Source of the DNA: Desulfuromonadales bacterium
GTDB lineage: Bacteria > Desulfobacterota > JAENJC01
DNA: 64,000 nt
NCBI GenBank assembly: GCA_919902985.1
Contig: CAKKSC010000004.1
Coordinates: forward strand, 32,230 to 96,229
Reading direction: 5' to 3'
The notes beneath the pieces are model-generated. The model saw nothing but the letters and a program-made list of their open reading frames with translations. It searched no databases and was not told the origin of the DNA. The stretch's first letter is position 1, and each line of letters opens with the position of its first letter. The position numbers and the translations under genes were made by a program. Positions 21,764 to 62,491 of this stretch are shown here, piece by piece.

Positions 21764-21800
21764 TTAACAGTTTATCTCCTTAGAGTAAATCATGTAACCC

Positions 21801-22580: not shown

Positions 22581-22587
22581 TTATCAG

Positions 22588-23520: not shown

Positions 23521-23539
23521 TATATAACCTGCCTGATTT

Positions 23540-24067: not shown

Positions 24068-24090
24068 AGTATAACCAGAAACTCCTTAGT

Positions 24091-24133
24091 AAAAAATACA
24101 GGGCACGACCAGTATTTTCCGGCCATGCCCTGT
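24091..24133 (-). terminator. Intrinsic terminator after the cytochrome c genes
   Basis: Minus strand acagggcatggcc-loop-ggtcgtgccctgt followed by atttttt. Confidence 0.7.
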
Positions 24134-24183
24134 CAATGTCAATGCTGCAAAAATGACATTATTAATGATACCTGTGCATATCC

Positions 24184-25128: not shown

Positions 25129-25168
25129 CTTTCACCTCCTTTTAGGTTTAGATTAATTACTACAACAA

Positions 25169-25534
25169 TTATTTAGCCGTGCAGTTACACAGCTTCCGTA
25201 AGTAGGACACCATATCCTTTATTTCGTCAGCAGTCAAGGTCTTCCCAAATGGAGGCATAAGAGGAGACTTGCTGTTTGCCGGCCCACCGTCCGTAATAGC
25301 GTTCGTGATATCTGCATCGGAAAGCTTGCTCATATCCTCAGCGCTTGCATGGTTTCTTGGGGTTACGGCCATGTCCTTTGTGACATTGATCCCGTCGCCC
25401 TTGCCTTGAGGGCCATGACACTGAGTACAGTAAAATTTATAATTCTCTTCAGCAGTAGCCGCGTAAGAAACCCCGGTTCCCAAAGTCATCATTACAGCAA
25501 AAATCATTAAGAGATAAAGTGCTTTTTTGTTCAT
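25169..25534 (-). CDS. Periplasmic monoheme cytochrome c
   Basis: Signal peptide, 'CTQCHG..GKGDG', 'MPPFG'. Confidence 0.92.
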   Translation of the reverse strand: MNKKALYLLMIFAVMMTLGTGVSYAATAEENYKFYCTQCHGPQGKGDGINVTKDMAVTPRNHASAEDMSKLSDADITNAITDGGPANSKSPLMPPFGKTLTADEIKDMVSYLRKLCNCTAK

Positions 25535-25601
25535 CTATAACTCCTTATAAATTAGGTTTGAGGCGGTTAATAAAACCGCATGGGACTAACTCCCTTTCAA
25601 T

Positions 25602-26285
25602 TTAAAAACTTGCAATGAGGGCAGCTACGTTCTTCATGTCAACGTCACTCAAATAACCTTCATAAATAGGCATCCTCTTAACAGGCTTAAACACCTTAGG
25701 CTTCTTCAGATATGCATATACCCAGTCGCCCTGAAGCCTCTCACCGGCCTTAACCAGGCTCGGCGCAACCATTCCGCCAACAACCTTGCCGGTCTTCTCT
25801 ATCTGATGACATGCCTGACATGCCTGCTTTTTCTCAAATGCCTGTTTCCCCTGAATGTTCTTATTTGCCTGAATCACTCCTGCCTCTACATCCTTTGATG
25901 TAAGGGTCATAAGATATTCTGCAACCTCGTCAGCCTCTGCCTTTGACAGTTTTGGGTGGTTGCCTGCGTTCTTCTTCTCCAATGAATTATACTCGATAGG
26001 CCTTATGACTATAGGGTCCTGAAGCCACTTTTCCAGCCATTCCTTCTTAAATTTACTGCCGGCATACCACAGCTCCGGCCCTTTCTTCTTAAGCTGGTCC
26101 GCAAAGGTCTTCTCAGTAGCAGGCCCCTGAGTTATATGACAATCACCGCTGCCGCACTTCTTTGCCTCAAACACACCCTTACCCTTGGCCGCGTCAGCGC
26201 GGCTGCTCTCCGCACCAAATCCAATCATGGCAGATGCGAGGAGCGATACTACAACAACACGACTGCAAGTTACTCTTTTAACCAT
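25602..26285 (-). CDS. Periplasmic diheme cytochrome c (CX4CH + CX2CH)
   Basis: Signal peptide; 'CGSGDCH' then 'GPELWYAG'; 'CQACH' then 'APSL' and 'MP'. Confidence 0.82.
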   Translation of the reverse strand: MVKRVTCSRVVVVSLLASAMIGFGAESSRADAAKGKGVFEAKKCGSGDCHITQGPATEKTFADQLKKKGPELWYAGSKFKKEWLEKWLQDPIVIRPIEYNSLEKKNAGNHPKLSKAEADEVAEYLMTLTSKDVEAGVIQANKNIQGKQAFEKKQACQACHQIEKTGKVVGGMVAPSLVKAGERLQGDWVYAYLKKPKVFKPVKRMPIYEGYLSDVDMKNVAALIASF

Positions 26286-26341
26286 TCGAACCCTCCTTTG
26301 TAAATTTATGAACCATTGTATATATCACCTAAACAGAGTTG

Positions 26342-28999: not shown

Positions 29000-29014
29000 T
29001 AATTACATCCTCTC

Positions 29015-29072
29015 AAAAAACAAATGGTTCGGCCGCAGACATTAAGACATTAATTGACTGCGGCCGAACCAT
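29015..29072 (-). terminator. Long stem-loop / intrinsic terminator directly after nosZ-like gene
   Basis: atggttcggccgcag...ctgcggccgaaccat perfect 15-bp stem, followed on minus strand by ttgtttttt. Confidence 0.8.
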
Positions 29073-29089
29073 CGCATTATCCTTAACTA

Positions 29090-30832
29090 TTATATCTGAT
29101 TAAGATTATCTACCCTCTCTGCCCTTTCAAATTCGTCTTCATCGGCAGCAACGTTCTTCTTCTGGGCCTCATCATAATCGCCTACAGCAAGGTTGGAAGG
29201 ACCTTTCTTCGGATCGTCTACGAAGAACGCGCCCCTCATCTCGAGGTGCAGAGGACCGCAGAAGTGCTGGCAGTAAACCTCATATTCACCAGCTGTATCA
29301 GCGACAAACTCACCAACAGCACTCACACCCCTCGGGATAGTAATCATGGTCTTGAGACCATATGGCCCGTTTATGTTGTAACCCATAATAACATCGGGGT
29401 TTTTGGTTATGCCTGCTGCCTTATCAATATTGGTTACAATAAGCCTGACCTTATCGCCCTTATTGACCCTGACCTGCCTTGGGACATAACCGTAGCTGAA
29501 TGCCTTTACCCTAACTTCCTTAACACCGTCCTTAGTTGTGGTCACGCCCGGCCTGCCTGTATCCATCGGCACATAGTAAGACTTGCCGCCTCTATGGTGC
29601 CCCGGCTCAATCCTGCCGGACTTACCAGCGCCTGCAAAGAGGGTTGATACACCCTTCTCGGCCTCACCCATGTTCCAGTTCTTGATTGCGCTTGCAAAAA
29701 GGATCTTTGCGTTGTGCGGCTCACCGTCAACAGGGATAATCTTGAGGGTCTTACCATATGTCTTGCTCTTCTCCTCAATGTCGATCATCTCATGGTTGAC
29801 CGGCCAGGCAATGCCTGTCGGGCTGAAAAGCCCGGTAGAGAACTTGTTCAAGGCAAATACATACTTATTGTCAGGGCTAACACTTATATGCCCGATCCTG
29901 TAGTGAACCGGGAACTCGTCAACAACCTCCAGCTTGTCCAGGTCTGTCTTCACGATGCTGTCTGCCACAAAGCAGCTTGTATACGCATACTTGCCGTTTG
30001 TGTCAAACACGTTGTGCAACGGACCGGCTCCGGCAGGGATAACCTTCTTGACAGCAAGCTTTTCAACATCTATGATGCTGAGCGTTGCGGAGAGCTTGTC
30101 CGCGACCTGGATATACCTTCCGAGTGGGTCGGCGTCCGTACCGTGCGGGTTCTTACCAACTGGGATCTCCTTTATGAGCTTGAACGGATTCAGCTCGAAG
30201 ACACCGACTGTTGAGTGGTAGTAGTTGTTGGAGAAAACATACTGCTTCCTGTCTGCCTTACCGGCCTTCTTGTTTATGTCAAGATAGTCCGGGGCGCTTG
30301 GCGCAGGACCCCAGTCTATGACCTGGGTCTTGCCGGTTGCTATATCGGTCTTGGCCATCTTTCCTGTGAGCTCGCCTGTTGAATAAAGGGTCTTTCCGTC
30401 AGGTCCGAGTGTGATGTGGTGAATGCCGAACGGGAAAGGCAAAGAAATGAGCCTGTCCAGCATACCCATCTGGAGGTTGATTATCCCGATGGTGTTTGCC
30501 CCCTTATCGTTCACATAGAGGTATTTGCCATCAGGCCCTTTGCTGTACGGACCATACCAGCTCTTCATACCTTCGTTTGTAGGTGCGCTGAATGTTGGCT
30601 CATGCAGGTCAACACCAACAGGTATATGCCTGTATGTCCTCAAGCTTGGCACACCCATCACAGCCACAGCTCCGTCAACCCCACCTGCGTTATACATGAT
30701 CATAGGGTCCTGAAGCGGGGCGTCATTTGGAGACGATTCCGTCTCGTGCCAGTCCCTCTCACCCGCCACCGCAGTGCCGCCAACCATAAGCAGCAGTGCA
30801 AGCACTATAAATAATGAATTGCGATATCTCAT
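29090..30832 (-). CDS. nosZ: Divergent nitrous-oxide-reductase-like multicopper protein (beta-propeller + CuA cupredoxin), Sec-type signal
   Basis: NosZ motifs 'GVPSLR', 'DGKYLYVNDK', 'KNPHG', 'ADKLS', 'GPLH', 'VHY.IGH', 'LNKFS', 'EPH', CuA 'CQHFCGPLHLEM'; deviations DLHE, GIHH, DVIMG; no twin-arginine motif. Confidence 0.8.
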   Translation of the reverse strand: MRYRNSLFIVLALLLMVGGTAVAGERDWHETESSPNDAPLQDPMIMYNAGGVDGAVAVMGVPSLRTYRHIPVGVDLHEPTFSAPTNEGMKSWYGPYSKGPDGKYLYVNDKGANTIGIINLQMGMLDRLISLPFPFGIHHITLGPDGKTLYSTGELTGKMAKTDIATGKTQVIDWGPAPSAPDYLDINKKAGKADRKQYVFSNNYYHSTVGVFELNPFKLIKEIPVGKNPHGTDADPLGRYIQVADKLSATLSIIDVEKLAVKKVIPAGAGPLHNVFDTNGKYAYTSCFVADSIVKTDLDKLEVVDEFPVHYRIGHISVSPDNKYVFALNKFSTGLFSPTGIAWPVNHEMIDIEEKSKTYGKTLKIIPVDGEPHNAKILFASAIKNWNMGEAEKGVSTLFAGAGKSGRIEPGHHRGGKSYYVPMDTGRPGVTTTKDGVKEVRVKAFSYGYVPRQVRVNKGDKVRLIVTNIDKAAGITKNPDVIMGYNINGPYGLKTMITIPRGVSAVGEFVADTAGEYEVYCQHFCGPLHLEMRGAFFVDDPKKGPSNLAVGDYDEAQKKNVAADEDEFERAERVDNLNQI

Positions 30833-32841: not shown

Positions 32842-32862
32842 GGATTAAGGTTGAGGTAGATC

Positions 32863-35499
32863 ATGAAAAATAAAATGCTAAAGATGGGGATACAGAGAAG
32901 GGTTATTACCTCGATCCTTATTGTAAGCATCCTCCCCCTTGTGGCTGGCCTGTATCTTACATATCGGGATGGGACAACTACTCGCAGGAACTCTATAGGC
33001 ACGAGTTTCCAGGAGATAGCAAAAGAGACAGCCTACAAGATCGATATGATAATCGAAAAAGAGGTTGACGATGTCCAAAGGCTTGCTATTTCGCCTGATG
33101 TCAGAGAGGCTGTTTTTCAGACCAGTCAGAATAACGAGGAACTGAATAATTATCTCGGACAGCTCGTTAATTATAATGAAAAAGAGATATACAGCCTTAC
33201 CGTAGTTGATACTGAAGGTAAGTACATAACCGGCGTTGGGACAACAACAAAAAGAAACTACAGTAACGAAAAATGGTTTATAGAGGCGTTCAATGCCGGC
33301 AGGGGGAAGGTGTCTGTTGGTAATTTAGAGTTTAATAAGATATCCGAAGTGTATATTATAAGCATCGCTGCACCTGTCATGGATAATTTAAAGGCCATGG
33401 GTGTAGTTGTAATAAAATACAATATTGATAATCTCCTTGAAGTCATTACCAACGTGAGGATTGAAAAGACCGGCCACGCAAACCTTGTAGATTCCTCAGG
33501 CACAATAATCATGTGTCCGATCTTCCCCCCACGCAGTCACCAGATAAACCCCGGCCTCCTTAACATAATAAAAAACACAAAACCAGGATGGGGAACAGCA
33601 GAGGATGATGCCCATGGCGGGGAAAACTCAATTATCGGCTTTGCCCCCGTTAACTCTACTTTGGATCCAGATAATGGCTGGTTTGATGGACATACATGGC
33701 ACATCTTCATAAGACAAAACCCTGATGAGACATACGAACCTATTTATTCTCTCGTCATCCAGATATCTATATTCGGCTCTGCACTTATAATATTACTGTC
33801 TCTCGCTGGAGTATATGCAACCAGGAAAATCGTCAGACCGATTAATCAGCTATATGAGGGAGTGGGGCGTATAGGGCAGGGGGACCTTGACTATCGTCTC
33901 AACATAAAGACCAATGACGAGATAGAAAAACTGGCGGATGAATTTAATCTCATGGCAGGGAAGCTTCAAGAGACCTACTCCAAACTCGAAAACAGGACGA
34001 CGGAACTTGAGACATCGGAAGAAAGATACAAAGACCTTATTGAAAACTCACCCGAGATGATACACTCTGTTGATTCTAACAGGTTCTTTGTAGGGGTGAA
34101 TAAAACGGAACTCGATATACTTGGCTATACCCTTGACGAAATGATGCAGATGAGGATAGAGGACATCATGCCTGAGGAGTTCAAATGCCAGGGCATAAAC
34201 CACATTGCAACATCAAGAGATAAAGGTGTCAGCACTATAGAGGGACAATTTATTTCAAAGGATAGTAGAAGAATCGATGTGGAGATTACAGCTACTGCTT
34301 GTTACCACCCGCTAACAGGTGAATTTGTCAGAACAAGGGCGTTTGTAAGGGACATTACGGACAGGAAGAAGCTGGAGATGCAGTTGAAAGAATACTACGA
34401 AATCCTGGAGCAGAAGGTGCAGGACAGGACGAGGGAGTTGAAACAGACCAAGGATTATCTTGAAAACCTTCTTGAAACAGCAAACGATGTTATTTATACG
34501 CTAAATCCAGATGGGATAGTTACTTATGTCAACAAAAAGATAGAGGAGTGGGGCTACACTAAAGATGAGCTGATTGGGAAATCCTTTTTGACCGTCTTTT
34601 CAAAGGTACATAAGGGTGAGAGGTTTAAAAAGACAGTACGGGATGGGATAAAACAGACTTACGGAGTAGAGGTTGTAAGCAAAACAGGTGAGCCGAAATA
34701 TGCAATATTAAGCATTTCACCTATCAGGGAGAACAACGGAATAATAACAGAGGTATTAGGCATAGCTAAGGATATAACAGATCAGAAAATGCTCGAAAAG
34801 CAGGTAGCAGATACGGAGAAGATGTCAGCCATCGGACAGCTTGCTGCAGGAGTCGCTCATGAAGTAAATAACCCTCTCGGCGGGATATTAAACTGCCTTT
34901 ATAATCTCAGGAAAAATGAATTCTCGGAGGAAAAGGAGGAAGAGTATTACATGGCCATGGAGGATGGCATCCACAGGGTCAAGAAGATCGTCAGCCAGTT
35001 GCTTGACTTTTCTCAGCAGCATGAACCTGAATTCACTTATGAGGATATAAATACCCTGGTAGAAAATGTCTTCTTCCTGATGAACTGCACCTTTTCCAAG
35101 AACGGGATCACTTTTAAAAAGAAACTCTCCCCACGCCTTCCAAAGCTATTTATAGATAAGCACAAGATATCACAGGTATTAACCAATATACTCATAAATG
35201 CTGTTCAGGCAACAAAAGAGAAGGGACAGATAACCGTCCGGACAACACATAAGGAAGGCTGGTGCATAATAGATATTGCTGATTCCGGCCCAGGAATCCC
35301 GGAAGATATTTTCCCCAAGATATTCGACCCGTTCTTTACAACAAAAGACGTTGGAGAGGGCACAGGTCTTGGTCTTTCGGTAAGCAGGGGTATAATAGAG
35401 ATGCACAACGGGAAGATAGATGTTAAGAGCACGGCTGGCGTCGGCGCTATCTTTACTATTAAACTCCCTATTGCCTCACCGCAACATCCGGCAGTTTAA
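32863..35499 (+). CDS. Sensor histidine kinase (TM-Cache-TM-HAMP-PAS-PAS-HisKA-HATPase)
   Basis: Two TMs around periplasmic domain, HAMP 'DEIEKLADEFN.M', two PAS ending 'RDITDRK' and 'KDITDQK', 'AHEVNNPL', 'FDPFFTTK..GTGLGL'. Confidence 0.95.
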   Translation: MKNKMLKMGIQRRVITSILIVSILPLVAGLYLTYRDGTTTRRNSIGTSFQEIAKETAYKIDMIIEKEVDDVQRLAISPDVREAVFQTSQNNEELNNYLGQLVNYNEKEIYSLTVVDTEGKYITGVGTTTKRNYSNEKWFIEAFNAGRGKVSVGNLEFNKISEVYIISIAAPVMDNLKAMGVVVIKYNIDNLLEVITNVRIEKTGHANLVDSSGTIIMCPIFPPRSHQINPGLLNIIKNTKPGWGTAEDDAHGGENSIIGFAPVNSTLDPDNGWFDGHTWHIFIRQNPDETYEPIYSLVIQISIFGSALIILLSLAGVYATRKIVRPINQLYEGVGRIGQGDLDYRLNIKTNDEIEKLADEFNLMAGKLQETYSKLENRTTELETSEERYKDLIENSPEMIHSVDSNRFFVGVNKTELDILGYTLDEMMQMRIEDIMPEEFKCQGINHIATSRDKGVSTIEGQFISKDSRRIDVEITATACYHPLTGEFVRTRAFVRDITDRKKLEMQLKEYYEILEQKVQDRTRELKQTKDYLENLLETANDVIYTLNPDGIVTYVNKKIEEWGYTKDELIGKSFLTVFSKVHKGERFKKTVRDGIKQTYGVEVVSKTGEPKYAILSISPIRENNGIITEVLGIAKDITDQKMLEKQVADTEKMSAIGQLAAGVAHEVNNPLGGILNCLYNLRKNEFSEEKEEEYYMAMEDGIHRVKKIVSQLLDFSQQHEPEFTYEDINTLVENVFFLMNCTFSKNGITFKKKLSPRLPKLFIDKHKISQVLTNILINAVQATKEKGQITVRTTHKEGWCIIDIADSGPGIPEDIFPKIFDPFFTTKDVGEGTGLGLSVSRGIIEMHNGKIDVKSTAGVGAIFTIKLPIASPQHPAV

Positions 35500-41992: not shown

Positions 41993-42784
41993 TTAAACCC
42001 TGTAGATAGTCTTCAATACACGCCTTTGAATAAAATATGAGATGATCCCTATATATGCCAATATCAATGGCATTATTATGTAAATATTCGACCATGTCGA
42101 GTTGTTGATTAATGTGTTGTTGCCGCCCCCGCTAATAACGATTCCAAACCTGTTCCTCCATGCCCTGTTGTCCTTCAAGGTATTGTTGCTTGAATCCCAA
42201 AGTAGGATCCCGTTCCAGGTGTTATGGTTAACATTATTGTCCGTAAGGTTATTATAGCTGGAGGAGCTCAGGAATATCCCATTGTCTTTATTTGAACTTG
42301 CGCTGTTTTTTTCCAGGCTGTTCCTATTGGATGAATCAAGATATATCCCATAGCTTTCGTTTAAATCGGCTGAGTTGCCTGCTATCGTATTGTTGCTGGA
42401 ACCATAGAAAATAATTCCATTACCGTTCTTTACACTCTTGTTATCAGTAATCGTCCCATTATTGGAATTATAAAGGTATATGCCGGAAAGAAGAGAACCT
42501 GTGGTCGTAAAGCCCGATATCGTTACATTATTAACGTTGCTTATCTTAAACACAGGCTCGCTGGGAACAGCTGCCAAGATAGTTGTGAAATCCGGGCCTC
42601 TGCGCGACCTTATCGAAACCGGCCTCGTGATCGAAACATTTTCTTTATAAATTCCTTCACTCACAATTATAGTATCTTCCTTGGAGGCGTTAATTACCGC
42701 CTCCTGGATAGTCTTATAGTTTTCAGGAACAATGATTGTAGAATAAATAAGTAATAATGCTGTTAATGACAGCATGTGTCGCAC
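41993..42784 (-). CDS. NosD/CASH-type right-handed beta-helix protein with C-terminal TM
   Basis: 'VPENYKTIQEAV', repeated 'GI.L..SSNNT...N....N' units; signal-like N-terminus. Confidence 0.8.
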   Translation of the reverse strand: MRHMLSLTALLLIYSTIIVPENYKTIQEAVINASKEDTIIVSEGIYKENVSITRPVSIRSRRGPDFTTILAAVPSEPVFKISNVNNVTISGFTTTGSLLSGIYLYNSNNGTITDNKSVKNGNGIIFYGSSNNTIAGNSADLNESYGIYLDSSNRNSLEKNSASSNKDNGIFLSSSSYNNLTDNNVNHNTWNGILLWDSSNNTLKDNRAWRNRFGIVISGGGNNTLINNSTWSNIYIIMPLILAYIGIISYFIQRRVLKTIYRV

Positions 42785-43584
42785 GCAATCTCTTTTGATT
42801 CAACAGCCTTCTGGTGGAATCTCGCCCTTTCAACTGCTTTTTCCTCATCCGGTTTGCGTTCTCCCGGCTCAACTGGAATAAATGAATGCTCTGCATGCCT
42901 CATCCCTTTCATCAAGGACCCTTTCATATCTTCTGTGATATACTTCCTCACAAATTCAAAAAACTCATTGTCCTCCTTGCGGACATGGCTTCTGAGAGCA
43001 ACAAGCGCCGAGCCGATTATCTTATCGTTTATGGTTCCATCCCTGAGGGCCTCGCGGAAAGAGTATATTAGAGATATAATCTCGCGGTGGTCCTCGTTTA
43101 TGCAGGCGACAAGACCTTCGCCAAAAGGCACAAGCCCCCTCAAAGCAGGGAACAGAACCTCTTCCTCTTTGATGCCGGAATGCAGCTGGAGGAGGTTATC
43201 GAGCTCTGCGGTAGAAACCCAGAGTTCATCAATATTCCTCTTGACCAGAATAGCGTCAACTTTGTCAGCCATCTCCAGTATCTTTTGATGCTCCGAAATC
43301 AGAGCTGCAATTGGGTCCGTCCTCGGGTCGGTTGCTGGAGACAGCTCTTCTCTTCCACCCAGCACATCCTCATCCTTAGCTGCTTCAATACTTAATGCCT
43401 CAAACTGCTGGGAATAGCCCATACGACATGCATGTCTGGGACTTTTAAAATACCTGGCATCCTCATATGAAGCCGCCAACCGGGCATATTCAGACTCTGT
43501 CAGGAACAATATTCCATTCTTGCAATGAACAACGCAGGATGAATGGTGACATGTATACTTTATTTCTAAAACCTTATCCGACAT
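42763..43584 (-). CDS. Hemerythrin-like (HHE) domain protein with Cys/His-rich termini
   Basis: 'LISEH', 'H...KEEEVLFP', 'EDH', 'HVRKED'; N-terminal 'CHHSSCVVHC..HAC', C-terminal 'CDTCCH'. Confidence 0.8.
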   Translation of the reverse strand: MSDKVLEIKYTCHHSSCVVHCKNGILFLTESEYARLAASYEDARYFKSPRHACRMGYSQQFEALSIEAAKDEDVLGGREELSPATDPRTDPIAALISEHQKILEMADKVDAILVKRNIDELWVSTAELDNLLQLHSGIKEEEVLFPALRGLVPFGEGLVACINEDHREIISLIYSFREALRDGTINDKIIGSALVALRSHVRKEDNEFFEFVRKYITEDMKGSLMKGMRHAEHSFIPVEPGERKPDEEKAVERARFHQKAVESKEIACDTCCH

Positions 43585-53501: not shown

Positions 53502-54155
53502 TTATATCCCTCCCTTTCCACCGTAATTTCTCCACAAAGCATCATGGGCAGTATTCCTTGTTCTTTTGCTATACCTTCCGCTCCAAATAATGGTGAAGAG
53601 GATAAGTATTGCCACAAATCCGATTATTCCGATACCGGCAAAAGTCGCAGACTGCGACGGTGCAACATCATTCGCACCCTGAACCTTAAGGAATGCCCTC
53701 AAATTCTCCATTTCCGACTCAGTGATATTCTTTGCCGTAAAAATTGGACCCATAGTCGGGCTGCCGCCGCCGTTAACCCATGCTGTGCTGAGGAGAGGAT
53801 TCTTGGACTCGTCAACATAAGCCTTCGTGAGGTTTGGACCAAGGGTCCCACCATTCAAAGCTCCAACTCCAGTACTATGACATGATATACATGGAGGTCC
53901 AGCATTTTCAAATCTAATCTCCCCCGTAAACAGCGCTCTGCCGACATTAGCATCGCCGGCTTCTACCGGGGCCGCCACTGCAGCAGGCTCAGACGCCGCC
54001 TGCGTTTCAGCCTGGACTGCCTCAGCCGGCTGTCCAGATTCTGCCTGTTGAGCCCCTACGGCTGCTGGAAGCATCACCATTCCAGCTACAAGGGGTACTG
54101 CCAGTAAAGATTTAAAACCTTTCTTACATAAATCCAGATAACCACTCACCACCAT
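53502..54155 (-). CDS. narC: NarC-like periplasmic monoheme cytochrome c with C-terminal anchor
   Basis: Signal peptide, 'G.ALFTG..RFENAGPPCISCH', 'LGPNLT', 'M.PIF', C-terminal TM; immediately upstream of narG. Confidence 0.78.
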   Translation of the reverse strand: MVVSGYLDLCKKGFKSLLAVPLVAGMVMLPAAVGAQQAESGQPAEAVQAETQAASEPAAVAAPVEAGDANVGRALFTGEIRFENAGPPCISCHSTGVGALNGGTLGPNLTKAYVDESKNPLLSTAWVNGGGSPTMGPIFTAKNITESEMENLRAFLKVQGANDVAPSQSATFAGIGIIGFVAILILFTIIWSGRYSKRTRNTAHDALWRNYGGKGGI

Positions 54156-55982: not shown

Positions 55983-56047
55983 AATCGCCTCCTTATTATA
56001 TATTTTTTGAATATCTTGAAATTTACCGATATAAGTCGTGGATAATA

Positions 56048-56063
56048 AGCAAACGGTATGCCA
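56048..56063 (-). promoter_or_regulatory. Sigma54 (-24/-12) promoter for narK-usp-narCGHJI
   Basis: Minus strand TGGCATA-CCGT-TTGCT, 65 bp upstream of the narK start. Confidence 0.85.
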
Positions 56064-56178
56064 ACAGTTTATTTGAAAGCTGCTTTCTCGCCAGAACCTG
56101 TTGAATTACTTGACTATATTACTTATTTTTCTGTGGTCAGACAACCATTGGTTGGTGATCGCTACATGTATGCATCGT

Positions 56179-56261
56179 GTTACCTTTCAGTAACGACTAT
56201 TTAAGCTTTTGAGGATTTATCCAATGAAATCAGTAAGTAACATGCGCTACCTTTTGGTAAC
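56179..56261. promoter_or_regulatory. Two palindromic GYTAC-N6-GTAAC sites (candidate enhancer-binding-protein sites)
   Basis: gttacctttcagtaac (56179-56194) and gctaccttttggtaac (56246-56261), ~115-200 bp upstream of the sigma54 promoter. Confidence 0.55.
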
Positions 56262-56545
56262 AGATTGATTATTAGGTAATCAGTAAGCCTTTTACGAAAA
56301 ACTTTCAGCCCCTCAAAAAAAGACTTGACAGTTAAAATATAAATTGATATTTATCGTTGCCATTGAAGAAATCAACGGGTGAAATAATAAATCAGTAAAG
56401 TTACTATCACCAGAATGTTAACAGCAAGACCAATAAAAATTACTATTCCAGATATGTCTTCTTTTTTAAACATGTTGAAGAAGATAGCAGAAAATTAAAT
56501 GGTGTCAAGTAGGTTGTTGATTAATTTAATATAAAGAGGTGATAT

Positions 56546-56644
56546 ATGCATGGAACGACAGAATCAAATGCGGGATGGGCAGGGCCGATATTATTTATTT
56601 CGGTAGCAGTAGCAATGCTGGCTTTTTTAATTTGGTTTCTATGA
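56546..56644 (+). CDS. 32-aa single-TM microprotein (not in ORF track)
   Basis: RBS aagaggtg; MHGTTESNAGWAGPILFISVAVAMLAFLIWFL*. Confidence 0.65.
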   Translation: MHGTTESNAGWAGPILFISVAVAMLAFLIWFL

Positions 56645-56663
56645 TTACATTATCAAGGAGGAT

Positions 56664-56783
56664 ATGATGAAATCGTTTTATGGTACGTTTGCGGTAGCTC
56701 TTGTGGTCAGTGTTGTTTTCTTTATCTTGTTCGACGCGGGGCTGATGAAGCTCCAGGGACTATCACTGATTTTTCACAAGTAG
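56664..56783 (+). CDS. 39-aa single-TM microprotein (not in ORF track)
   Basis: RBS aaggagg; MMKSFYGTFAVALVVSVVFFILFDAGLMKLQGLSLIFHK*. Confidence 0.7.
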   Translation: MMKSFYGTFAVALVVSVVFFILFDAGLMKLQGLSLIFHK

Positions 56784-56806: not shown

Positions 56807-58654
56807 GTGTGTATGAGTTTTTTTTCTGGATTTAAGAGATTAACTTGCCTTACTCTGCTATTAACTGTTTTATTTGCGGGTGGTTTCACCTTCACCTCCT
56901 TACCTGTTTTTGCCAATACCGCCAATCCTGAAGAGGCGGTAAAGTCAGAGGGCACGACTACTGAGGCAGTTAAAGAGGGGGAAAAGAAAGTAGAATATCC
57001 TCCTGCGCCAAAATTAACTGTTGCCGATTATCCTCAGATTGGAAGCTTTAACCCAAGGATTCTGGTTTGGATAGTTGCCCAGCTACATCTCTGGTTTGCA
57101 GCATTCGTCCTTGCAGTACCTATCTTTGTCCTTATAATAGAGGCCCTTGGCATGGCTACCAAGGACCAACGATACGACAATATGGCGTATGAGTTCATTA
57201 AGGTCAGCATGGCTGCATACTCTATTACTGCCATTATAGGCGGACTACTGACATTTTCACTCCTCGTATTTTATCCCGATCTGTTCAAATATATGGCAAG
57301 CCTCTTCAGCAGGTCAATGCTGGCTTACGCCTTCCTGTTCTTTGCAGAAAGCGCTTCCTTATATATATATTATTATGGATGGCACTGGCTTGAGGGTGGA
57401 TTCAAGAAGTGGGTACATCTCACAATAGGATTGGTCCTTAATTTTGTCGGCACAGTCCTGATGCTGCTTGCAAATGCGTGGGTCTCATTTTCAATGAGTC
57501 CAAACGGGGTTGACCCTGCAACAGGCGCCTTTTTAGGCAGTGAGTGGAATGTAATCCATAACTTCCTCTGGAATCCATTGAACCTTCACAGGGTTATAGC
57601 GAACATAGCGTATGGCGGATCTATCATCGGCGCCTATGCAGCTTATAAGTTCCTTGGCAGCAGTTCAAAAGAAGACAAGGCTCATTATGACTGGATGGGT
57701 TATACAGCAAATGTTATTGCAGTTGGCGGGCTCCTGCCTCTTCCTTTCGCTGGTTACTGGCTGACAAAGGAGATTTATGCCTACAGTCAGCAGATGGGGA
57801 TAACCCTGATGGGTGGCGTCTTCGCCTGGCTGTTTATCATGCAGGCAGTTCTTATTGGCGCCCTTTTCCTTTCCGTAAACTACTACCTCTGGTGCGGAAT
57901 GGAGAGAAGCGAAGGTTCCGTCAGGTATACGAAGAATATCAAGTGGATAGCGGCAGCGGTAGTTGCATGCTTCCTCGTCTGGTTCACTCCTCATACGCTG
58001 GTTCTAACTAACCAGGAGTTAAAGGCATTAGGCGGTCCTTACCATAAGTACCTCGGACCTCTTGGGATCATGCCCGCTAAGAATACTGCCGTCAACATCA
58101 TGATCATACTTACATTCCTGAGCTTTACGCTATACAGAAGGGCCAATAAGATTGCAACTGTCTCTTGGGCTGCTGCCGGAAGTGCAGTTCAGGCAGCTAT
58201 ATTTGCCGGCGCCATTGCAAATATTATCTTCCTCGGAGTGTTCTATGGATATTTCACAAATACGGCTTATAAGGTAGCTGCATCAATCCCACAGGTCTCG
58301 ACTACAGCGGTAGTTATTATATTCACATTGATCATAGATTCAATGATGTTTAAGGGCGCTAAAGATGTGGCGCCTTTAAAGTGGGGAAATGTTCCAGGCC
58401 GATCTCAATATGCGCTTTTTACATTGGCCGTTTCATTTACGTGGCTTATGGGTCTGATGGGTTACATCCGGTCTGGAATAAGACAGCACTGGCATGTAAA
58501 TTCGATAATGAGGGATAATTCTATAAACGCGTTCACTCCAACGATTGGTTATGCCGCACAGGTAGTCACTTTGGCGGCAGTGATATTTATGGCTATAGTT
58601 ATATTCATCTTCTGGCTCAGCAATATCAGTGCGAAGAAATCTGCGGCTCATTGA
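56807..58654 (+). CDS. Cytochrome bd subunit I (CydA)-like 'bd-like' oxidoreductase, no CydB partner in view
   Basis: 'QLHLWFAAFVLAVP', 'DQRYDNMA', 'AES..LYIYYYGW', 'H...G', 'ANAW.SF..SP', 'NLHR', 'MGYIRSGIRQHWH'; >10 TM. Confidence 0.8.
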   Translation: MCMSFFSGFKRLTCLTLLLTVLFAGGFTFTSLPVFANTANPEEAVKSEGTTTEAVKEGEKKVEYPPAPKLTVADYPQIGSFNPRILVWIVAQLHLWFAAFVLAVPIFVLIIEALGMATKDQRYDNMAYEFIKVSMAAYSITAIIGGLLTFSLLVFYPDLFKYMASLFSRSMLAYAFLFFAESASLYIYYYGWHWLEGGFKKWVHLTIGLVLNFVGTVLMLLANAWVSFSMSPNGVDPATGAFLGSEWNVIHNFLWNPLNLHRVIANIAYGGSIIGAYAAYKFLGSSSKEDKAHYDWMGYTANVIAVGGLLPLPFAGYWLTKEIYAYSQQMGITLMGGVFAWLFIMQAVLIGALFLSVNYYLWCGMERSEGSVRYTKNIKWIAAAVVACFLVWFTPHTLVLTNQELKALGGPYHKYLGPLGIMPAKNTAVNIMIILTFLSFTLYRRANKIATVSWAAAGSAVQAAIFAGAIANIIFLGVFYGYFTNTAYKVAASIPQVSTTAVVIIFTLIIDSMMFKGAKDVAPLKWGNVPGRSQYALFTLAVSFTWLMGLMGYIRSGIRQHWHVNSIMRDNSINAFTPTIGYAAQVVTLAAVIFMAIVIFIFWLSNISAKKSAAH

Positions 58655-58703
58655 TTTACATATAGCAATTAGGTAGAAATAAATATTTTAAGGAGCAGCC
58701 AAG

Positions 58704-59540
58704 ATGAAAATTTTTTTGAAGATTGTATTTTTTTGTATTCTTGCTTTTTCTGGCTTTGTAGGATTTGCAAATTTTGGAATACCCCAGGTCAAACCGGCTC
58801 CGCCTCCAACAGAGGAGAAGCTTGACCTCGGGAACATGACAATGGACCAGTTTATCGCCCTCGGAGACAAGATATTCAATGGGAAAGGTACCTGTACCCT
58901 TTGCCACAACAATGTTGGTAAGAGGGCGCCAATGCTTGACGGTGCGGGTGAGGAAGCGGTTGCCAACAACGCCCTGCTCAGGCTTAAGGATCCGAGGTAT
59001 AAGGGTAAGGCTACAACGCCTGAAGAGTATATCAGAGAATCAATGAAGACACCTTCCGCCTTTGTAGTTGCTGGATTTGGTTCAGACAATGACACAAAGA
59101 GCCCAATGCCGGTGATAACGCAGGGCTCTATAGGGCTGTCCGACGCTGAGGTTGATGCTGTCATCGCCTTCTTGCTGAACAAGGCAGGAGTTGAAGTGAC
59201 AGTAAAGATACCGGTAGGAGCACCCCCGTCTGAAAAGGCAGAGGAAGCAAAGCCGGCTGAACCCGCTAAGACACCTGAGGAAGTGATCGCAAAATTCGGC
59301 TGTGGAGCATGTCACAAGATAGGTAAGGAAGAAGGAGCTCTTGGTCCAGATCTGACTCGTGTTGGTAAATCAAAAAATGAACCTTATCTGAGAAGGGCTA
59401 TACTTGACCCTAATGCCGATATTGCAAAGAACTGTCCTGGTGGACCTTGTGCTCCAGGCATGATGCCGCCTGATTTCGGCGCAAAGATGACAGGCTCTGA
59501 GTTTGAAATGCTGGTACAATATTTAGTTAAATCTAAATAA
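58704..59540 (+). CDS. Membrane-anchored diheme cytochrome c
   Basis: N-terminal TM, 'CTLCH', 'YIRES...P.AFVV.GF', 'CGACH', 'MMPP'. Confidence 0.9.
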   Translation: MKIFLKIVFFCILAFSGFVGFANFGIPQVKPAPPPTEEKLDLGNMTMDQFIALGDKIFNGKGTCTLCHNNVGKRAPMLDGAGEEAVANNALLRLKDPRYKGKATTPEEYIRESMKTPSAFVVAGFGSDNDTKSPMPVITQGSIGLSDAEVDAVIAFLLNKAGVEVTVKIPVGAPPSEKAEEAKPAEPAKTPEEVIAKFGCGACHKIGKEEGALGPDLTRVGKSKNEPYLRRAILDPNADIAKNCPGGPCAPGMMPPDFGAKMTGSEFEMLVQYLVKSK

Positions 59541-59567
59541 TAAATAAACCTAAAAAGAGGTAAAGAG

Positions 59568-60335
59568 ATGAAGTTACCTAAGTTGTTACAGGCGGTTTTA
59601 GTAGTAGTTGCGGTTTATATTGCGTTTAAGCTGGTATTCAGCGTTGGACTCCAGCAGCCAATACCATCCAGCCTTCTGACCATGTATATGTTCTTTGTCG
59701 TGGTGGCTACGTTGCTTGTCACAACTGCAACAGAGGAGAGTGCCAAGGAAATGTCAGGCCCTATCAAGGCGCTGGTGGAAGACCCGAGCAAGAAGACAAT
59801 CAGGAATATAGTATTTGTCCTTGTCCCTCTTCTTGCAGGCTGGATGACATACAGCAATTTGCGGCCAAGCTTCGAGGCACCGGTTGAACTAAGAACCATT
59901 CACCCTGCACCCCCGGGAAGCATGAAGGCTTTTGGCAAGTCTTACGACCTCGCAAAGCTTGAGAACCCTTTCAGGAAATATCAGAAGGAAGATCCTGAAA
60001 AATTCAAGGCTCTTGTGAAAGAGGGTGGAGCGGTATATTACAAGAACTGTCATTACTGTCACGGCGATAAGCTGGATGGACAGGGACAATATGCCCAGGG
60101 ATTCAATCCTCTGCCTCTGAATTTTCAGGATATTGGAACAATAGCTCAGTTGCAGGAGTCGTTCCTTTTCTGGAGGATTGCGACTGGTGGGCCGGGGCTT
60201 CCTAAAGAGGCTACACCGTGGCTATCAGCCATGCCGGTCTGGAAGGACTTCCTGACTGAGGATGAGATATGGAAGGTGATTCTATTCCTCTATGATTATA
60301 CAGGACAGGCTCCAAGATCATGGGCTGCGCATTAG
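59568..60335 (+). CDS. Membrane (3 TM) monoheme cytochrome c
   Basis: Three N-terminal hydrophobic helices, 'LRTIHPAPP', 'CHYCHGD', 'SAMP.W'. Confidence 0.88.
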   Translation: MKLPKLLQAVLVVVAVYIAFKLVFSVGLQQPIPSSLLTMYMFFVVVATLLVTTATEESAKEMSGPIKALVEDPSKKTIRNIVFVLVPLLAGWMTYSNLRPSFEAPVELRTIHPAPPGSMKAFGKSYDLAKLENPFRKYQKEDPEKFKALVKEGGAVYYKNCHYCHGDKLDGQGQYAQGFNPLPLNFQDIGTIAQLQESFLFWRIATGGPGLPKEATPWLSAMPVWKDFLTEDEIWKVILFLYDYTGQAPRSWAAH

Positions 60336-60441
60336 ATTATTGAGTAGTTAGCTTTCAGATGTGTTACTAAAGGGATTCTTGCATCTTTAACCCTCTTGGG
60401 ACTCAAATACCAGAGGATAAAAAACGATCAGGACGGTCAAA

Positions 60442-61962
60442 ATGAAAATGAGAACAAAGTTAGTATCAATGCTGTCAATTGCTGTCTTCGCAGCGCCCTT
60501 AACCAGCTATTCGGCCCAGGGGAACGCGGAAAACGGAAAAAAGATTTATGACAAGAGGTGCGTCTGGTGTCATGGTGAAGAGGGAGCGGGTGACGGTCCG
60601 GCTGCTGAGCGAGTAAACCCTGCGCCAAGGGATTTTACCTCAGGGATGTACAAAATTAAGACTACTCCATTCGATGAGGTAAGTCCAAAGGATGAGGATA
60701 TCTTCAGGATGATCAGTGACGGTATGCCGGATTCTTCAATGCCGCCGTGGAAAGATATGCTTTCTGAACAGGAGAGATGGGACCTCGTAGCTTATTTGAA
60801 GAAATTTGCAGGCCTTGAAAATCCCAAGAAGGAGTTGGACTTCAGCAAGCAGGTGAAGACCTCTGCTGAGAGTATTGAACGGGGCAAGAAGCTGTTCCTG
60901 GATCGTTGCGCCGAGTGTCATGGAGAGACAGGCAAAGGAGTTTCCATAAAAAAGCTTAAGGATGACCTCGGATTCAGGACATGGCCAAGGAACTTTACTA
61001 AACCATGGACATTCAGAGCAAGTAACGATCCAAAAGATATATTTGCTCGTATGTCGGTAGGTATTCCTGGGACACAGATGCCGTCTTTCGCCGACCCCTC
61101 AAGTAAAAAGAAACTTTCTGATGAAGAAAGATGGGATGTCGCAAATTATGTTGTGTCATTGGCAGACAGCACAAAGGAAGTCAGGGCAGAGAACACTGTT
61201 GTGAAGGCTTCCAGGATTGAGGGGGAACTCCCGTCTGAGCCGGGTGACCCCAAGTGGATGGAAGCAGAACCCTCTACCTTCCTTCTGGTCCCTCAGATAA
61301 TCGGACAGGAAAGGTTCTTTACTCCCTCTAATAACAGCATCACGTCCAGGGCATATTATAATGATAAGGATATCTCAATATTAATCGAATGGGATGACAG
61401 GACAGCAAGCGCTCCCGGTGATCCAAAAGCTGCCGAGATTGCTGAAGGAGAAGTTTCAGCTGATGCGGTTGCAGTTCAATTCCCTGTTACAATTCCTCTG
61501 GAAATGGAAAAACCCTACTTTGGTCATGGCGATGCGGCGTGGCCTATTAATATCTGGTACTGGAACACCGGGGAAGCTGGGGCTTCGCAGGTGACCAAGC
61601 TTCTGAATGCCACCGGATTTGCAAAGAAGGATGAAAGGGATGCTGCCAAGGCCGGGTTGGTAACTAAAGGAGTTTATGATAAAGGTACCTGGCGTGTTGT
61701 TATGAAGAGGCCACTTGTAACAGGTGAGAAAGATAAGGATATACAGTTTGTCGAAGGAAGGTTTACTCCGATCGCTTTTGCAGCATGGGATGGCACCAAT
61801 GGCGAGAAGGGGTCAAAGCATACAATGACAACCTGGTACTGGATCCTCCTTAAACCGAAGGTGGGAATGAGTGTTTATTTTATTCCCCTCATTGTGGCCG
61901 GTTTAGTGGTGGGAGCTGAGTTGCTCTGGCTTGCCAGCGCACGTAAGAAGAAAAGTTCTTGA
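60442..61962 (+). CDS. Diheme cytochrome c fused to an ethylbenzene-dehydrogenase-gamma-like (heme b) domain, C-terminal anchor
   Basis: 'CVWCH', 'CAECH'; 'LIEWDD.T', 'DAVAVQFP', 'KPYFGHGD', 'W.VVMKRPL', 'AFAAWDG..GE.G.K'. Confidence 0.85.
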   Translation: MKMRTKLVSMLSIAVFAAPLTSYSAQGNAENGKKIYDKRCVWCHGEEGAGDGPAAERVNPAPRDFTSGMYKIKTTPFDEVSPKDEDIFRMISDGMPDSSMPPWKDMLSEQERWDLVAYLKKFAGLENPKKELDFSKQVKTSAESIERGKKLFLDRCAECHGETGKGVSIKKLKDDLGFRTWPRNFTKPWTFRASNDPKDIFARMSVGIPGTQMPSFADPSSKKKLSDEERWDVANYVVSLADSTKEVRAENTVVKASRIEGELPSEPGDPKWMEAEPSTFLLVPQIIGQERFFTPSNNSITSRAYYNDKDISILIEWDDRTASAPGDPKAAEIAEGEVSADAVAVQFPVTIPLEMEKPYFGHGDAAWPINIWYWNTGEAGASQVTKLLNATGFAKKDERDAAKAGLVTKGVYDKGTWRVVMKRPLVTGEKDKDIQFVEGRFTPIAFAAWDGTNGEKGSKHTMTTWYWILLKPKVGMSVYFIPLIVAGLVVGAELLWLASARKKKSS

Positions 61963-62008
61963 TAAGCTATCAGTCTCCTGATATATTAATTAATAAAGGA
62001 GGTGTTTA

Positions 62009-62491
62009 ATGAAGGTATCAGTTGGTGTTGTTGTGTCGTTAAGCTCGCTGTTATTATTTGGAGGTGTTGCTTCATCCTCCATAGCAGAAGGGAAAACAAG
62101 CCTCTCTATGCAGGCTAAGGAAAAGGCTATAGCGCATCAAGAAAAAGGTTCCACGTTTGATGATGAAGGTAATTTTGCAGCAGCTATAGAGGAGTTTAAG
62201 AAGTCACTTGAATATGACTCTGAAGAACCTAATACGCTCTTTAATCTCGGGGTTGTCTATCTTAAGACAAATAAGCCCTCTGAAGCAGAAAAGATCTTTG
62301 AAAAACTCAGCAAGATTTTACCTAACGACAGCGAAGTGTTCAATTTACTCGGCATAGCTCGCAGCGGAGCGGAGAAGAAGCAAGAAGCGATTGAGGCATG
62401 GGAAAGGTCCCTTGCTTTACAGCCCGACCAGCAGAAGGTAAAAGATATGATCACGGAGATTAAGACTGTTGCTTCAAACAGTGCCAAATAG
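62009..62491 (+). CDS. Exported TPR protein
   Basis: Signal peptide; three TPR units ('FNLGVVY', 'FNLLGIA'). Confidence 0.85.
   Translation: MKVSVGVVVSLSSLLLFGGVASSSIAEGKTSLSMQAKEKAIAHQEKGSTFDDEGNFAAAIEEFKKSLEYDSEEPNTLFNLGVVYLKTNKPSEAEKIFEKLSKILPNDSEVFNLLGIARSGAEKKQEAIEAWERSLALQPDQQKVKDMITEIKTVASNSAK

Follow-up and report, generated by a model that had tools for sequence, protein, structure and literature searches.

Nitrite oxidisers are assumed to use the OR-N1 and OR-N2 proteins of the cytochrome bd superfamily as terminal oxidases, but the reaction of these proteins has never been measured. As described by Murali, Gennis and Hemp (bioRxiv 10.1101/2021.01.16.426971), both groups have about 14 transmembrane (TM) helices, lack the Q-loop, are encoded in operons with alternative electron donors, and keep the His19 ligand together with a one-residue deletion between the proton-channel positions. 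OR-N2 (NIDE0901-like) is often the lone cydA-like gene of its operon, while OR-N1 is paired with OR-N2, and a tandem, 40% identical paralogue found in some bacteria has been proposed to form a CydAA' heterodimer. The literature sections dealing with OR-N enzymes take them as cytochrome c-oxidising O2 reductases of the Nitrospinota and Nitrospirales, three cultivated aerobic species of the latter encoding no other type of oxygen reductase, but name no member that has been purified or assayed and state that "experimental confirmation ... still lacking". The enzymes are often found among iron oxidisers and in metagenome-assembled genomes (MAGs) from low-oxygen waters. A related gene set of Ferrigenium straubiae KS has been presented as an "octahaem cytochrome heterotetramer" (bioRxiv 10.64898/2026.01.22.701106, section 6.3.1), in which eight haems are counted; two small ORFs find no mention in that section.

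The window analysed here, a stretch of 64,000 nucleotides from a Desulfuromonadales bacterium (contig CAKKSC010000004.1), carries a well-preserved copy of this widespread membrane haem complex, which is thus of an already known, if uncharacterised, kind. All ORFs of the initial annotation are present, comprising the CydA-like protein with its FTPH (residues 393-396), YHKY (412-415) and GIRQHWH (557-563) motifs, three membrane cytochromes c with five CXXCH motifs in total (2+1+2), one of them an EB_dh fusion, and a TPR protein. The features of the window are as follows:

25169..26285, minus strand: two small cytochromes c of 227 and 121 aa (Pfam), here within the L-NosZ cluster
29090..30832, minus strand: clade III lactonase-type N2O reductase (L-NosZ; NF052460, 700.9 bits against a cut-off of 700)
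56324..56352, plus strand: candidate sigma-70-type promoter upstream of the operon (TTGACA-N17-TATTTA, read by eye)
56546..56644, plus strand: small ORF sp1, candidate small subunit; 32 aa, one TM helix, motif WAGPxLF...FFxWFL, own Shine-Dalgarno sequence
56664..56783, plus strand: small ORF sp2, candidate small subunit; 39 aa, one TM helix, motif LDxxxMxxQGL[ST]L, own Shine-Dalgarno sequence
56807..58654, plus strand: CydA-like core subunit of the OR-N1/N2 type; 615 aa, signal/anchor peptide and 13 TM helices
58704..59540, plus strand: dihaem cytochrome c; 278 aa, CXXCH at residues 64 and 200, hydrophobic N-terminal signal/anchor
59568..60335, plus strand: membrane-anchored monohaem cytochrome c; 255 aa, CXXCH at residue 161
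60442..61962, plus strand: dihaem cytochrome c fused to an EB_dh (EbdC/NxrC-type haem b) domain; 506 aa, two CXXCH, C-terminal TM anchor
62009..62491, plus strand: periplasmic TPR protein (TPR family matches), lineage-specific accessory; 160 aa
62696..63832, plus strand: cytochrome b with a b6-like N-terminal half and a C-terminal CXXCH (CNSCH); PF00033, e-value 7.7e-27

The CydA-like ORF encodes a true CydA homologue of the cytochrome bd superfamily. It matches Cyt_bd_oxida_I (PF01654; Bitscore: 63.7 against a cut-off of 26.2; e-value: 1.5e-17) over profile positions 3-239 of 418 only, with no match among the NCBIfam families. Translation probably starts at the ATG at 56813, which is preceded at 7 nt by AAGAGG and corresponds to M3, a residue kept in at least 90% of the aligned sequences. 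The ten top solved-structure matches of its AF2 model (pLDDT: 88.1; pTM: 0.87) are all CydA chains (VIA-align Z: 31.6-35.1; Foldseek e-values against solved CydA chains: 2e-8 to 3e-5), with the best alignment placing residues 81-612 of the model on residues 6-504 of a CydA chain (Z: 35.1; rmsd: 3.5; 351 residues). Such Z-scores, together with a gene order shared by 68 of the 80 related loci, lie far beyond chance.

Profile alignment with E. coli CydA (hhalign, probability 95%) pairs H94 with H19, the axial ligand of the active-site haem, as well as E181 with E107, Y174 with E99 and H261 with H186, a ligand of haem b558. H94, E181, H261 and Y174 are conserved in at least 90% of the 62 CydA-like sequences compared, as are H413 and H563, while H396 and H561 are kept in 76% and 61%, respectively, of 38 such sequences. 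The alignment ends at E. coli residue 211, with nothing past it, including the quinol site (Lys252, Glu257), aligned to the CydA-like protein; M335, likewise at least 90% conserved, is proposed as the counterpart of the haem b558 ligand Met393 from topology only. Proton-channel position Glu107 is thus kept as E181, Glu99 is replaced by Tyr174 and one residue is deleted between the two, while the cytoplasmic half of helices 1-6 holds the polar residues E112, H204 and D295, each at least 90% conserved.

With canonical cytochrome bd (CydAB(X); E. coli bd-I, PDB 6rko/6rx4) the protein has in common the CydA fold over all nine helices (Z: 32-35), the counterparts of His19, Glu107 and His186, and a GRQPW-like loop (G-I-RQHW-H) that precedes the last helix in the same place as in CydA. 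It differs in an insertion of four helices (residues 369-514) that separates CydA helices 7 and 8, in the Glu99 to Tyr exchange and in the Glu445 position, which, by its place in the motif, is apparently occupied by Arg555. Both of these glutamates are important in cytochrome bd, and their replacement was counted against O2 as the substrate. Furthermore, a Q-loop is not found in the AF2 model, where non-helical periplasmic stretches do not exceed about 29 residues, and CydB is lacking; whereas canonical cytochrome bd takes its electrons from quinol, here they would come from cytochromes c. A functional analogue, not a relative, is the cbb3 oxidase (CcoNOQP), in which a catalytic membrane subunit is similarly fed by anchored mono- and dihaem cytochromes c, and the cytochrome partners match ccoP- and ccoO-related models weakly. 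The catalytic subunit of cbb3 is, however, of an unrelated fold and superfamily, and a copper site would here be only hypothetical.

The complex belongs to the OR-N1/N2 branch, and probably to OR-N2, the N1/N2 label following the descriptions in the paper only. None of the tested features contradicts this membership: the model has 13 TM helices in addition to the hydrophobic N-terminal signal/anchor, the His19 ligand and the one-residue deletion are present, and the protein is the lone PF01654 match of the genome, in keeping with an OR-N2 gene often being the sole cydA-like one of its operon. In a FastTree phylogeny of 72 rows it falls inside a clade of 40 orthologues with 100% support, while E. 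coli CydA, the sole qOR sequence included, is placed on a branch of length 5.26. A qOR (CydAB) assignment was rejected on the lack of Q-loop and CydB and of any grouping with this one quinol-oxidising CydA, and OR-C was rejected as the CydA-like polypeptide carries no CXXCH, all five motifs residing on separate proteins. The description of the protein in the initial annotation as OR-N-type, quinol-site-less, CydB-less, tied to c-type cytochromes and uncharacterised is borne out.

The genomic surroundings were compared across 80 related loci with flanks of up to 10 kb each. In 68/80 loci the four-gene module of the CydA-like gene and three cytochromes c is complete and its gene order unchanged, while the remaining twelve are all interrupted by contig ends. 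In the F. straubiae locus (L048) the same four genes occur in the same order, with a 70% identical CydA-like subunit and two cytochrome c genes upstream; it differs in the Usp-PCP_red gene and other cytochromes alongside, and in having neither nar nor L-NosZ within 10 kb. The loci are frequent in Gallionellaceae, Zetaproteobacteria and Nitrospinia, and MAGs with the labels Rhodospirillaceae, Rhodospirillales or Alphaproteobacteria are another common source. A tandem CydA-like paralogue with 40% identity is found in some bacteria, as in the published description; in 23/80 loci every tandem paralogue has its own three-cytochrome set, which fits two separate complexes better than the heterodimer, and the upstream paralogue is absent from the other 57.

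Directly upstream of the CydA-like gene, same-strand tblastn matches to sp1 are found within 700 nt in 67/80 loci, and sp2 is matched at the same position in 74/80 (75 matches, one being a second, weak match in L058). These conserved small membrane ORFs are candidate additions to the known parts list, and we take their single-helix products to resemble CydX of canonical bd. Downstream, the dihaem cytochrome c is the next gene after the CydA-like one in the 68 complete loci, both its CXXCH motifs being at least 95% conserved (69 sequences). The monohaem cytochrome c is the best-conserved partner, with 55-92% identity across loci and 93 positions conserved to at least 95% (70 sequences). The fusion protein, for which conservation was seen in sets of 65 and 46 sequences, matches PF00034 (e-value: 1.9e-28) and EB_dh (PF09459; Bitscore: 64 against a cut-off of 33.3; e-value: 2.8e-17), while its score for TIGR03477 (102 bits) lies under the cut-off of 169.85. 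Recurrent partners are a haem-type radical-SAM/Usp-PCP_red pair, clade III L-NosZ and the two small cytochromes c, homologues of the 227-aa and 121-aa proteins directly preceding sp1, sp2 and the CydA-like gene in 59/80 and 63/80 loci, respectively. The small ORFs, these two dedicated soluble cytochromes and the radical-SAM/Usp-PCP_red pair give the complex a fuller parts list. A TPR homologue is found at the matching position in a single locus (L050), and homologues of the cytochrome b occur in 4/80, namely in L050 after the module and in L007, L072 and L080 ahead of it, next to L-NosZ. No Rieske gene adjoins this cytochrome b, which is a possible quinol-oxidising entry point.

From this gene set we infer a six-gene membrane complex, in which two single-helix peptides and the 13-helix CydA-like core would be joined by three membrane-anchored cytochromes carrying five haems c and one EB_dh-type haem b. 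Reduced periplasmic cytochrome c would supply the electrons, the likely donors here being the 227-aa and 121-aa cytochromes encoded beside L-NosZ, possibly reduced in turn by the cytochrome b. Electrons would then pass along the haem c chain to the EB_dh haem b, substituting for the absent Q-loop, and on to a low-spin haem on His261 and probably Met335 and a high-spin haem on His94, where a small oxidant, most likely O2, would be reduced. Protons may be drawn from the cytoplasm via Glu181, Tyr174, His204, Glu112 and Asp295; turnover would then, like that of cytochrome bd, contribute to the membrane potential, and the four extra helices may substitute for CydB. As micro-oxic terminal oxidase or O2 scavenger, the complex could keep Nar, an eNOR-like enzyme and L-NosZ working.

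The genome, which is 95.3% complete, contains no match to cydB (PF02322; control positive in 9 of 14 reference genomes), in agreement with the initial annotation, and the CydA-like protein is its sole PF01654 match. The thirteen related genomes holding the CydA-like protein, out of a phylum sample of 201, also lack cydB matches. Four PF00115 matches are present, none with an oxidase-type site: those on contigs C22 and C47 are short fragments, that on C41 lacks the Tyr and retains one His of the HH pair, and that on C11 is a B-family-type haem-copper enzyme with an intact CuA subunit II and all three CuB/FeB histidines, but with the cross-link Tyr replaced by Gln (GHASQQ). The C11 enzyme is 53% identical to an F. 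straubiae protein with the corresponding motif GHSSQQ, and the preprint classes the Tyr-less haem-copper enzyme of that species as eNOR; as such, the C11 protein may be regarded as an eNOR-like candidate NO reductase. Neither a standard O2 reductase nor cNOR/qNOR, nirS, nirK or nrfA was found in the genome. It therefore appears to be short of a standard O2 reductase rather than of an NO reductase, with the complex as its only candidate for the former. An assembly gap could account for this, given the 95.3% completeness and the A-family or cbb3 oxidase in a genome of the same genus (G003).

On balance we favour, at somewhat less than an even chance, a cytochrome c:O2 reductase. This reading is drawn from the kept catalytic core (H94, E181, H261, the whole CydA fold and the GRQPW-like loop), the conserved cytoplasmic polar residues E112, H204 and D295, the fixed subunit set (module, sp1 and sp2), the lack of any other recognisable O2 reductase in the genome and the use of OR-N enzymes as O2 reductases in the literature. 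To this is added G162, a 100% complete genome of the phylum sample that holds the CydA-like protein, with neither a PF00115 match at E ≤ 1e-10 nor cydB. Counted on the other side were the A-family or cbb3 oxidases in 7/13 holders (G003 among them) and the want of a purified or assayed family member in the published accounts. The proposal of the initial annotation, a cytochrome c-fed nitric oxide reductase supplying N2O to L-NosZ, we regard as improbable. It would be consistent with the Glu99 to Tyr exchange in the active site, the frequent position beside L-NosZ, the neighbouring nar genes, the lack of cNOR/qNOR and the statement in a PNAS paper that canonical cytochrome bd and other non-haem-copper enzymes can reduce NO. 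The supposedly missing step has, however, another candidate in the C11 enzyme, and since the same type is present in 6/13 module-holding genomes of the phylum, NO reduction would already be covered, while nirS, nirK and nrfA to make NO were not found. Cultivated aerobic nitrite oxidisers, moreover, are described as depending on OR-N enzymes with O2 as sole acceptor. The orthologous F. straubiae module is, according to the section on it (10.64898/2026.01.22.701106), similarly expressed in microoxic and denitrifying growth, with no induction reported under the latter, and is therefore not nitrate-specific; this similarity does not single out O2 either, and was counted accordingly.

L-NosZ bears on a further reading, in which the complex is an electron hub and no terminal reductase, a membrane redox module through which electrons from the quinone pool, or from the Rieske-less cytochrome b, would reach periplasmic cytochromes c that serve L-NosZ, or iodate reductase in other genomes. 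It would thus be a functional stand-in for NosR/NosGH, which L-NosZ clusters lack. All six L-NosZ genomes of the phylum sample hold the CydA-like protein, as against none among the 188 genomes without it, although the six are not independent (four families, two kin pairs). L-NosZ adjoins the module in 11/80 loci, and the two small cytochromes found upstream of the module elsewhere sit with L-NosZ in the window. In addition, clade III nosZ MAGs have been reported without canonical nos accessory genes, with cytochrome and transporter genes nearby instead, and the F. straubiae preprint proposes a role as quinol oxidase or quinone reductase in the section cited. Against this, the protein lacks the Q-loop, at which CydA is known to bind quinol, a quinone site is only hypothetical, most holders have no L-NosZ (7/13 in the phylum sample; 69/80 loci within 10 kb), and a plain relay would need neither the conserved cytoplasmic polar path nor a His19-type haem site. 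We consider the hub unlikely. The opposite direction of flow, a pmf-driven cytochrome c:quinone oxidoreductase by which lithotrophs (Fe(II), nitrite and Mn(II) oxidisers) would pass electrons uphill into the quinone pool, is very unlikely. The frequency of the module in Gallionellaceae, Zetaproteobacteria and Nitrospinia and the "quinone reductase" left open in the preprint speak for it, but it too calls on a hypothetical quinone site, and the Rhodospirillaceae-, Rhodospirillales- and Alphaproteobacteria-labelled MAGs and this Nar-bearing bacterium have no evident need of it.

The strict nesting of the newly described L-NosZ inside complex-carrying genomes hints at an N2O or NO role rather than O2. 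It is doubtful, but conceivable, that L-NosZ has the OR-N2 complex as its obligatory partner in the membrane, which would either deliver electrons via the two shared small cytochromes c in place of NosR/NosGH, or make the L-NosZ substrate by NO reduction. Such a partnership would explain both the L-NosZ clusters without canonical nos accessory genes and the presence of the complex in every L-NosZ genome of the sample, and a functional link would be relevant to the way in which a widespread N2O sink connects to respiration.

The module is divergent from a nar cluster consisting of narG (TIGR01580; Bitscore: 1389.6 against a cut-off of 1084), narH, narJ, narI and two narK genes, and the NarG N-terminus has no twin-arginine signal; the NosZ-like enzyme of the initial annotation is likewise real. 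The back-to-back arrangement with narGHJI exists in the window, but not as a conserved association: Nar proteins lie beside the module in 0/80 related loci, among them the relatives L006 (93% identical) and L008 (91%), which also weighs against the NO reductase. The proximity of module and nar is a local accident. FNR-type boxes show no excess over chance in the window, 33 being counted where 46 would be expected. Contigs with 0-1 differences to the window, from an aquifer metatranscriptome (an RNA library may contain DNA as well), span portions of the nar operon as well as of the module.

The open reading frames called by the initial annotation are present where it placed them, and its assignment of the CydA-like protein to the quinol-site-less OR-N branches of the cytochrome bd superfamily is correct. 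The core gene and the two short reading frames preceding it are as follows, with conservation given for the 80 related loci compared.

56546-56644: sp1, 32 amino acids, one hydrophobic helix, own ribosome-binding site; in the same place in 67/80 loci
56664-56783: sp2, 39 amino acids, one hydrophobic helix, own ribosome-binding site; in the same place in 74/80 loci
56807-58654 (+): CydA-like core protein, 615 amino acids; Pfam CydA profile at 1.5e-17, covering profile positions 3-239 of 418 (first half only)

No NCBIfam model matched the 615 amino acid protein. A PDB sequence search with the core extended over the first four to five helices only (1.8e-07 to 9r2g) and the hhalign alignment with E. 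coli CydA ended at residue 211; as both stop early, we infer the C-terminal ligand equivalences of the core. The AlphaFold2 model, built with 62 sequences, is confident (pLDDT 88.1; pTM 0.87), and its ten best solved-structure matches are all CydA chains (Foldseek E-values: 2e-8 to 3e-5). VIA-align superposed approximately 350 residues (Z: 31.6-35.1), from residue 81 to 612 of the model and from 6 to 504 of the chain, such that all nine CydA helices have counterparts. The modelled protein consists of a hydrophobic N-terminal signal or anchor followed by 13 helices, and includes no periplasmic loop of sufficient length for a Q-loop.

Profile alignment with E. coli CydA (probability 95%) equates H94, E181 and H261 with H19, E107 and H186, respectively, while the E99 position is occupied by Tyr174 and one residue is deleted between the E99 and E107 positions. 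These four residues are at least 90% conserved across the 62 sequences, as are H204, H413, H563, E112, D295, E404 and M335. In E. coli CydA the GRQPW motif comes straight after E445; the matching loop of the core reads R555-S-G-I-R-Q-H-W-H563, from the position of which E445 appears to be replaced by an arginine. On the basis of topology, M335 would be the equivalent of Met393, and residues 369-514 would form four extra helices between CydA helices 7 and 8. The latter may take the place of CydB, for which there are no PF02322 matches in the 95.3% complete genome.

More than 7,000 relatives of the core were found in a large protein collection, the best 120 of which are all at least 66% identical to it, and 1,057 in a library of 50%-identity representatives. 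In a FastTree phylogeny of 72 rows, the protein groups inside a clade of 40 orthologues that has 100% support; the source records of this clade carry the labels Nitrospinia, Deltaproteobacteria, Gallionellaceae, Magnetococcales, Alpha- and Gammaproteobacteria. The clade stands apart from the tandem paralogues and is distant from E. coli CydA. The OR-N1 and OR-N2 proteins, as described by Murali, Gennis and Hemp (bioRxiv 10.1101/2021.01.16.426971), have no quinol site and 14 helices, retain His19 and show a deletion between the positions of the two glutamates; OR-N2 is often alone in its operon, and tandem paralogues of approximately 40% identity occur in some bacteria. The features of the core agree with this description, and it is probably an OR-N2 protein, by its match to the published description rather than to labelled sequences. 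It is not an OR-C protein, since the CydA-like chain contains no CXXCH.

The core gene is followed by three cytochrome c genes with two, one and two CXXCH motifs, respectively, the third of which also encodes an EB_dh domain (2.8e-17) and an anchor at the C-terminus, and then by genes for a 160 amino acid TPR protein and for a cytochrome b with a CXXCH in its C-terminal part. The order of the core and the three cytochrome c genes is kept in 68 of the 80 loci, all from species-representative genomes; the remaining 12 end before all four genes can show. The sp1 and sp2 products presumably constitute small subunits of the complex. Prediction of a complex between core residues 70-615 and the EB_dh/TM part (245-506) of the 506 amino acid cytochrome gave no answer (0.00 against a mark of 0.32) and is neutral on binding. 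A second module, approximately 42% identical and with its own three cytochromes, is located upstream in 23/80 loci. A CydAA' heterodimer has been proposed in the literature for tandem bd-like paralogues, but two separate complexes fit these upstream modules better, given their own cytochrome sets.

Upstream of the module and divergent from it lies a genuine narK-usp-cytochrome c-narGHJI-narK cluster, in which NarG clears its model cut-off of 1084 with 1389.6 bits and has no twin-arginine signal in its N-terminus. The linkage of nar and module drawn in the initial annotation did not hold beyond this genome: Nar proteins matched none of the 80 loci, and the back-to-back position is therefore local. 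The cytochrome directly upstream of narG (53502-54155, -) is a 217 amino acid monohaem protein (CISCH); it has both a signal peptide and, at the C-terminus, a membrane anchor. Matches to the sigma-54 pattern in the window are as numerous as expected (50 vs 50); the one worth noting is a -24/-12-type element, TGGCATACCGTTTGC, at 56049-56063 (-), with one mismatch and approximately 67 nt ahead of the start of narK, which belongs to nar and not to the module. A sigma-54 activator and dCache-PAS histidine kinase pair is encoded at 31456-35499 (+), 20 kb from this element. FNR/CRP-type boxes (TTGAT-N4-ATCAA, up to two mismatches) number 33 in the window, fewer than the 46 expected, and the box at 56344-56357 was accordingly given no weight.

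An aquifer metatranscriptome library contains 72% of the words sampled from the module. RNA-library contigs with zero or one difference to the window overlap parts of nar and of the module, although they give no expression levels and the library may include DNA. In RNA run X1 the contig depth of the divergent intergenic bin (56007-56673) is 0.43, compared to 2.6-17.3 in the other bins, which is no gauge of transcription or of its absence; runs X2 to X4 contain small shares only. A preprint on Ferrigenium straubiae (bioRxiv 10.64898/2026.01.22.701106) names the orthologous set an "octahaem cytochrome heterotetramer" and describes their expression as alike in microoxic and denitrifying autotrophic growth.

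Several genes recur beside the module. Homologues of the 227 and 121 amino acid cytochromes c (window 25169-26285) are found directly upstream of it in 59/80 and 63/80 loci, respectively, while nearby genes encode a Usp-PCP_red protein (41/80), an AhbD/NirJ2-like radical-SAM/SPASM/PCP_red enzyme (39/80) and a 314 amino acid cytochrome c (12/80). Here the set is split over one contig, with L-NosZ, the clade III lactonase-type N2O reductase, and its cytochromes at 17.5-30.8 kb and the module at 56.5-63.8 kb of the window.

Window 17555-30832 (-): clade III L-NosZ cluster; L-NosZ at 700.9 bits (cut-off 700)
Contig C4 97075-100794 (= L088:1076-4795), just past the window end: radical-SAM pair and Usp-PCP_red gene

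The L-NosZ cluster also encodes a 150 amino acid ORF, two Vgb-lyase-like beta-propellers, three cytochromes c, a 175 amino acid ORF, an ABC ATPase, an ABC-2 permease, a GldG-like ABC_transp_aux protein, a DUF4340 protein, a periplasmic binding protein and a redoxin. Some components of this ABC set are again found next to the module in loci L015, L067, L074 and L078. One radical-SAM protein scores 493.5 bits with the haem b synthase AhbD model (cut-off 500); the other, a radical-SAM/SPASM paralogue, has a C-terminal PCP_red domain, which the Usp protein also bears. It is the two PCP_red proteins that recur beside the module, sometimes joined by a protoporphyrinogen-oxidase-like flavoprotein. 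A short NosD-like beta-helix protein (263 amino acids) adjoins a hemerythrin-domain protein at 41993-43584 (-), 11 kb from L-NosZ.

The initial annotation suggested that the complex may be a cytochrome c-fed NO (or O2) reductase filling a missing step; the missing NO reductase is not supported. Four PF00115 matches were found in the genome.

Contig C11 7118-9189: haem-copper enzyme, 502 amino acids, and 183 amino acid subunit II with intact CuA motif
Contig C41 21084-22478: degenerate haem-copper oxidase-like protein, 464 amino acids, Tyr absent and HH pair reduced to a single His
Contigs C22 19780-20763 and C47 4961-5362: short fragments, 327 and 133 amino acids

The C11 enzyme is nearest to ba3-type oxidases (1e-33 to 1e-39) and keeps the HH pair, with GHASQQ at the ba3 His-Tyr cross-link site (Tyr to Gln). 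It shares 53% identity with a F. straubiae protein with GHSSQQ; a preprint classes the Tyr-less haem-copper enzyme of that organism as an eNOR, and a purified eNOR is reported to reduce NO and not O2 (Murali et al. 2024). With C11 eNOR-like, C41 degenerate and the other two short fragments, the genome encodes a candidate NO reductase and no recognisable O2 reductase besides this complex. The step that the complex was thought to fill thus has another candidate, and we consider its function as an NO reductase decidedly unlikely. Cytochrome c-driven O2 reduction at a bd-type haem site is the function we tentatively favour as the likeliest. There are caveats to this, all from classes assigned by motif only: a same-genus genome (G003) encodes an A-family-type oxidase, and of the 13 genomes in a 201-genome phylum sample with the CydA-like protein, an oxidase of the A-family or cbb3 type is encoded in seven and an eNOR-like or NorB-like protein in seven. 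Neither nirK (TIGR02376) nor nrfA (PF02335) was matched in the genome, and a PF02239 match on contig C43 (32.8 bits) comes from a YVTN beta-propeller of generic type and not from NirS. The C41 gene adjoins a cNMP-binding regulator, and the F. straubiae counterparts of the C11 and C41 proteins (GHSSQQ and GHVLQF types) lie approximately 5 kb apart. The likeness of the C22 and C47 proteins, which have an HAH motif, to cbb3 CcoN is limited to the haem-ligand helices.

The complex could also serve as an electron hub for L-NosZ. When the phylum sample was searched for both proteins at E <= 1e-50, the six L-NosZ genomes were all among the 13 CydA-like holders and none among the 188 others; as these six represent four families, with two pairs being kin, the count overstates their independence. 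L-NosZ lies near the module in 11/80 loci, and no link between OR-N and L-NosZ appears in the titles or abstracts found by a literature search. We regard this role as rather unlikely, and uphill electron entry through the complex as highly improbable; O2 reduction remains our preferred reading. The organism's class is represented by four species-level genomes in the collection searched, three of which encode the bd-like protein.
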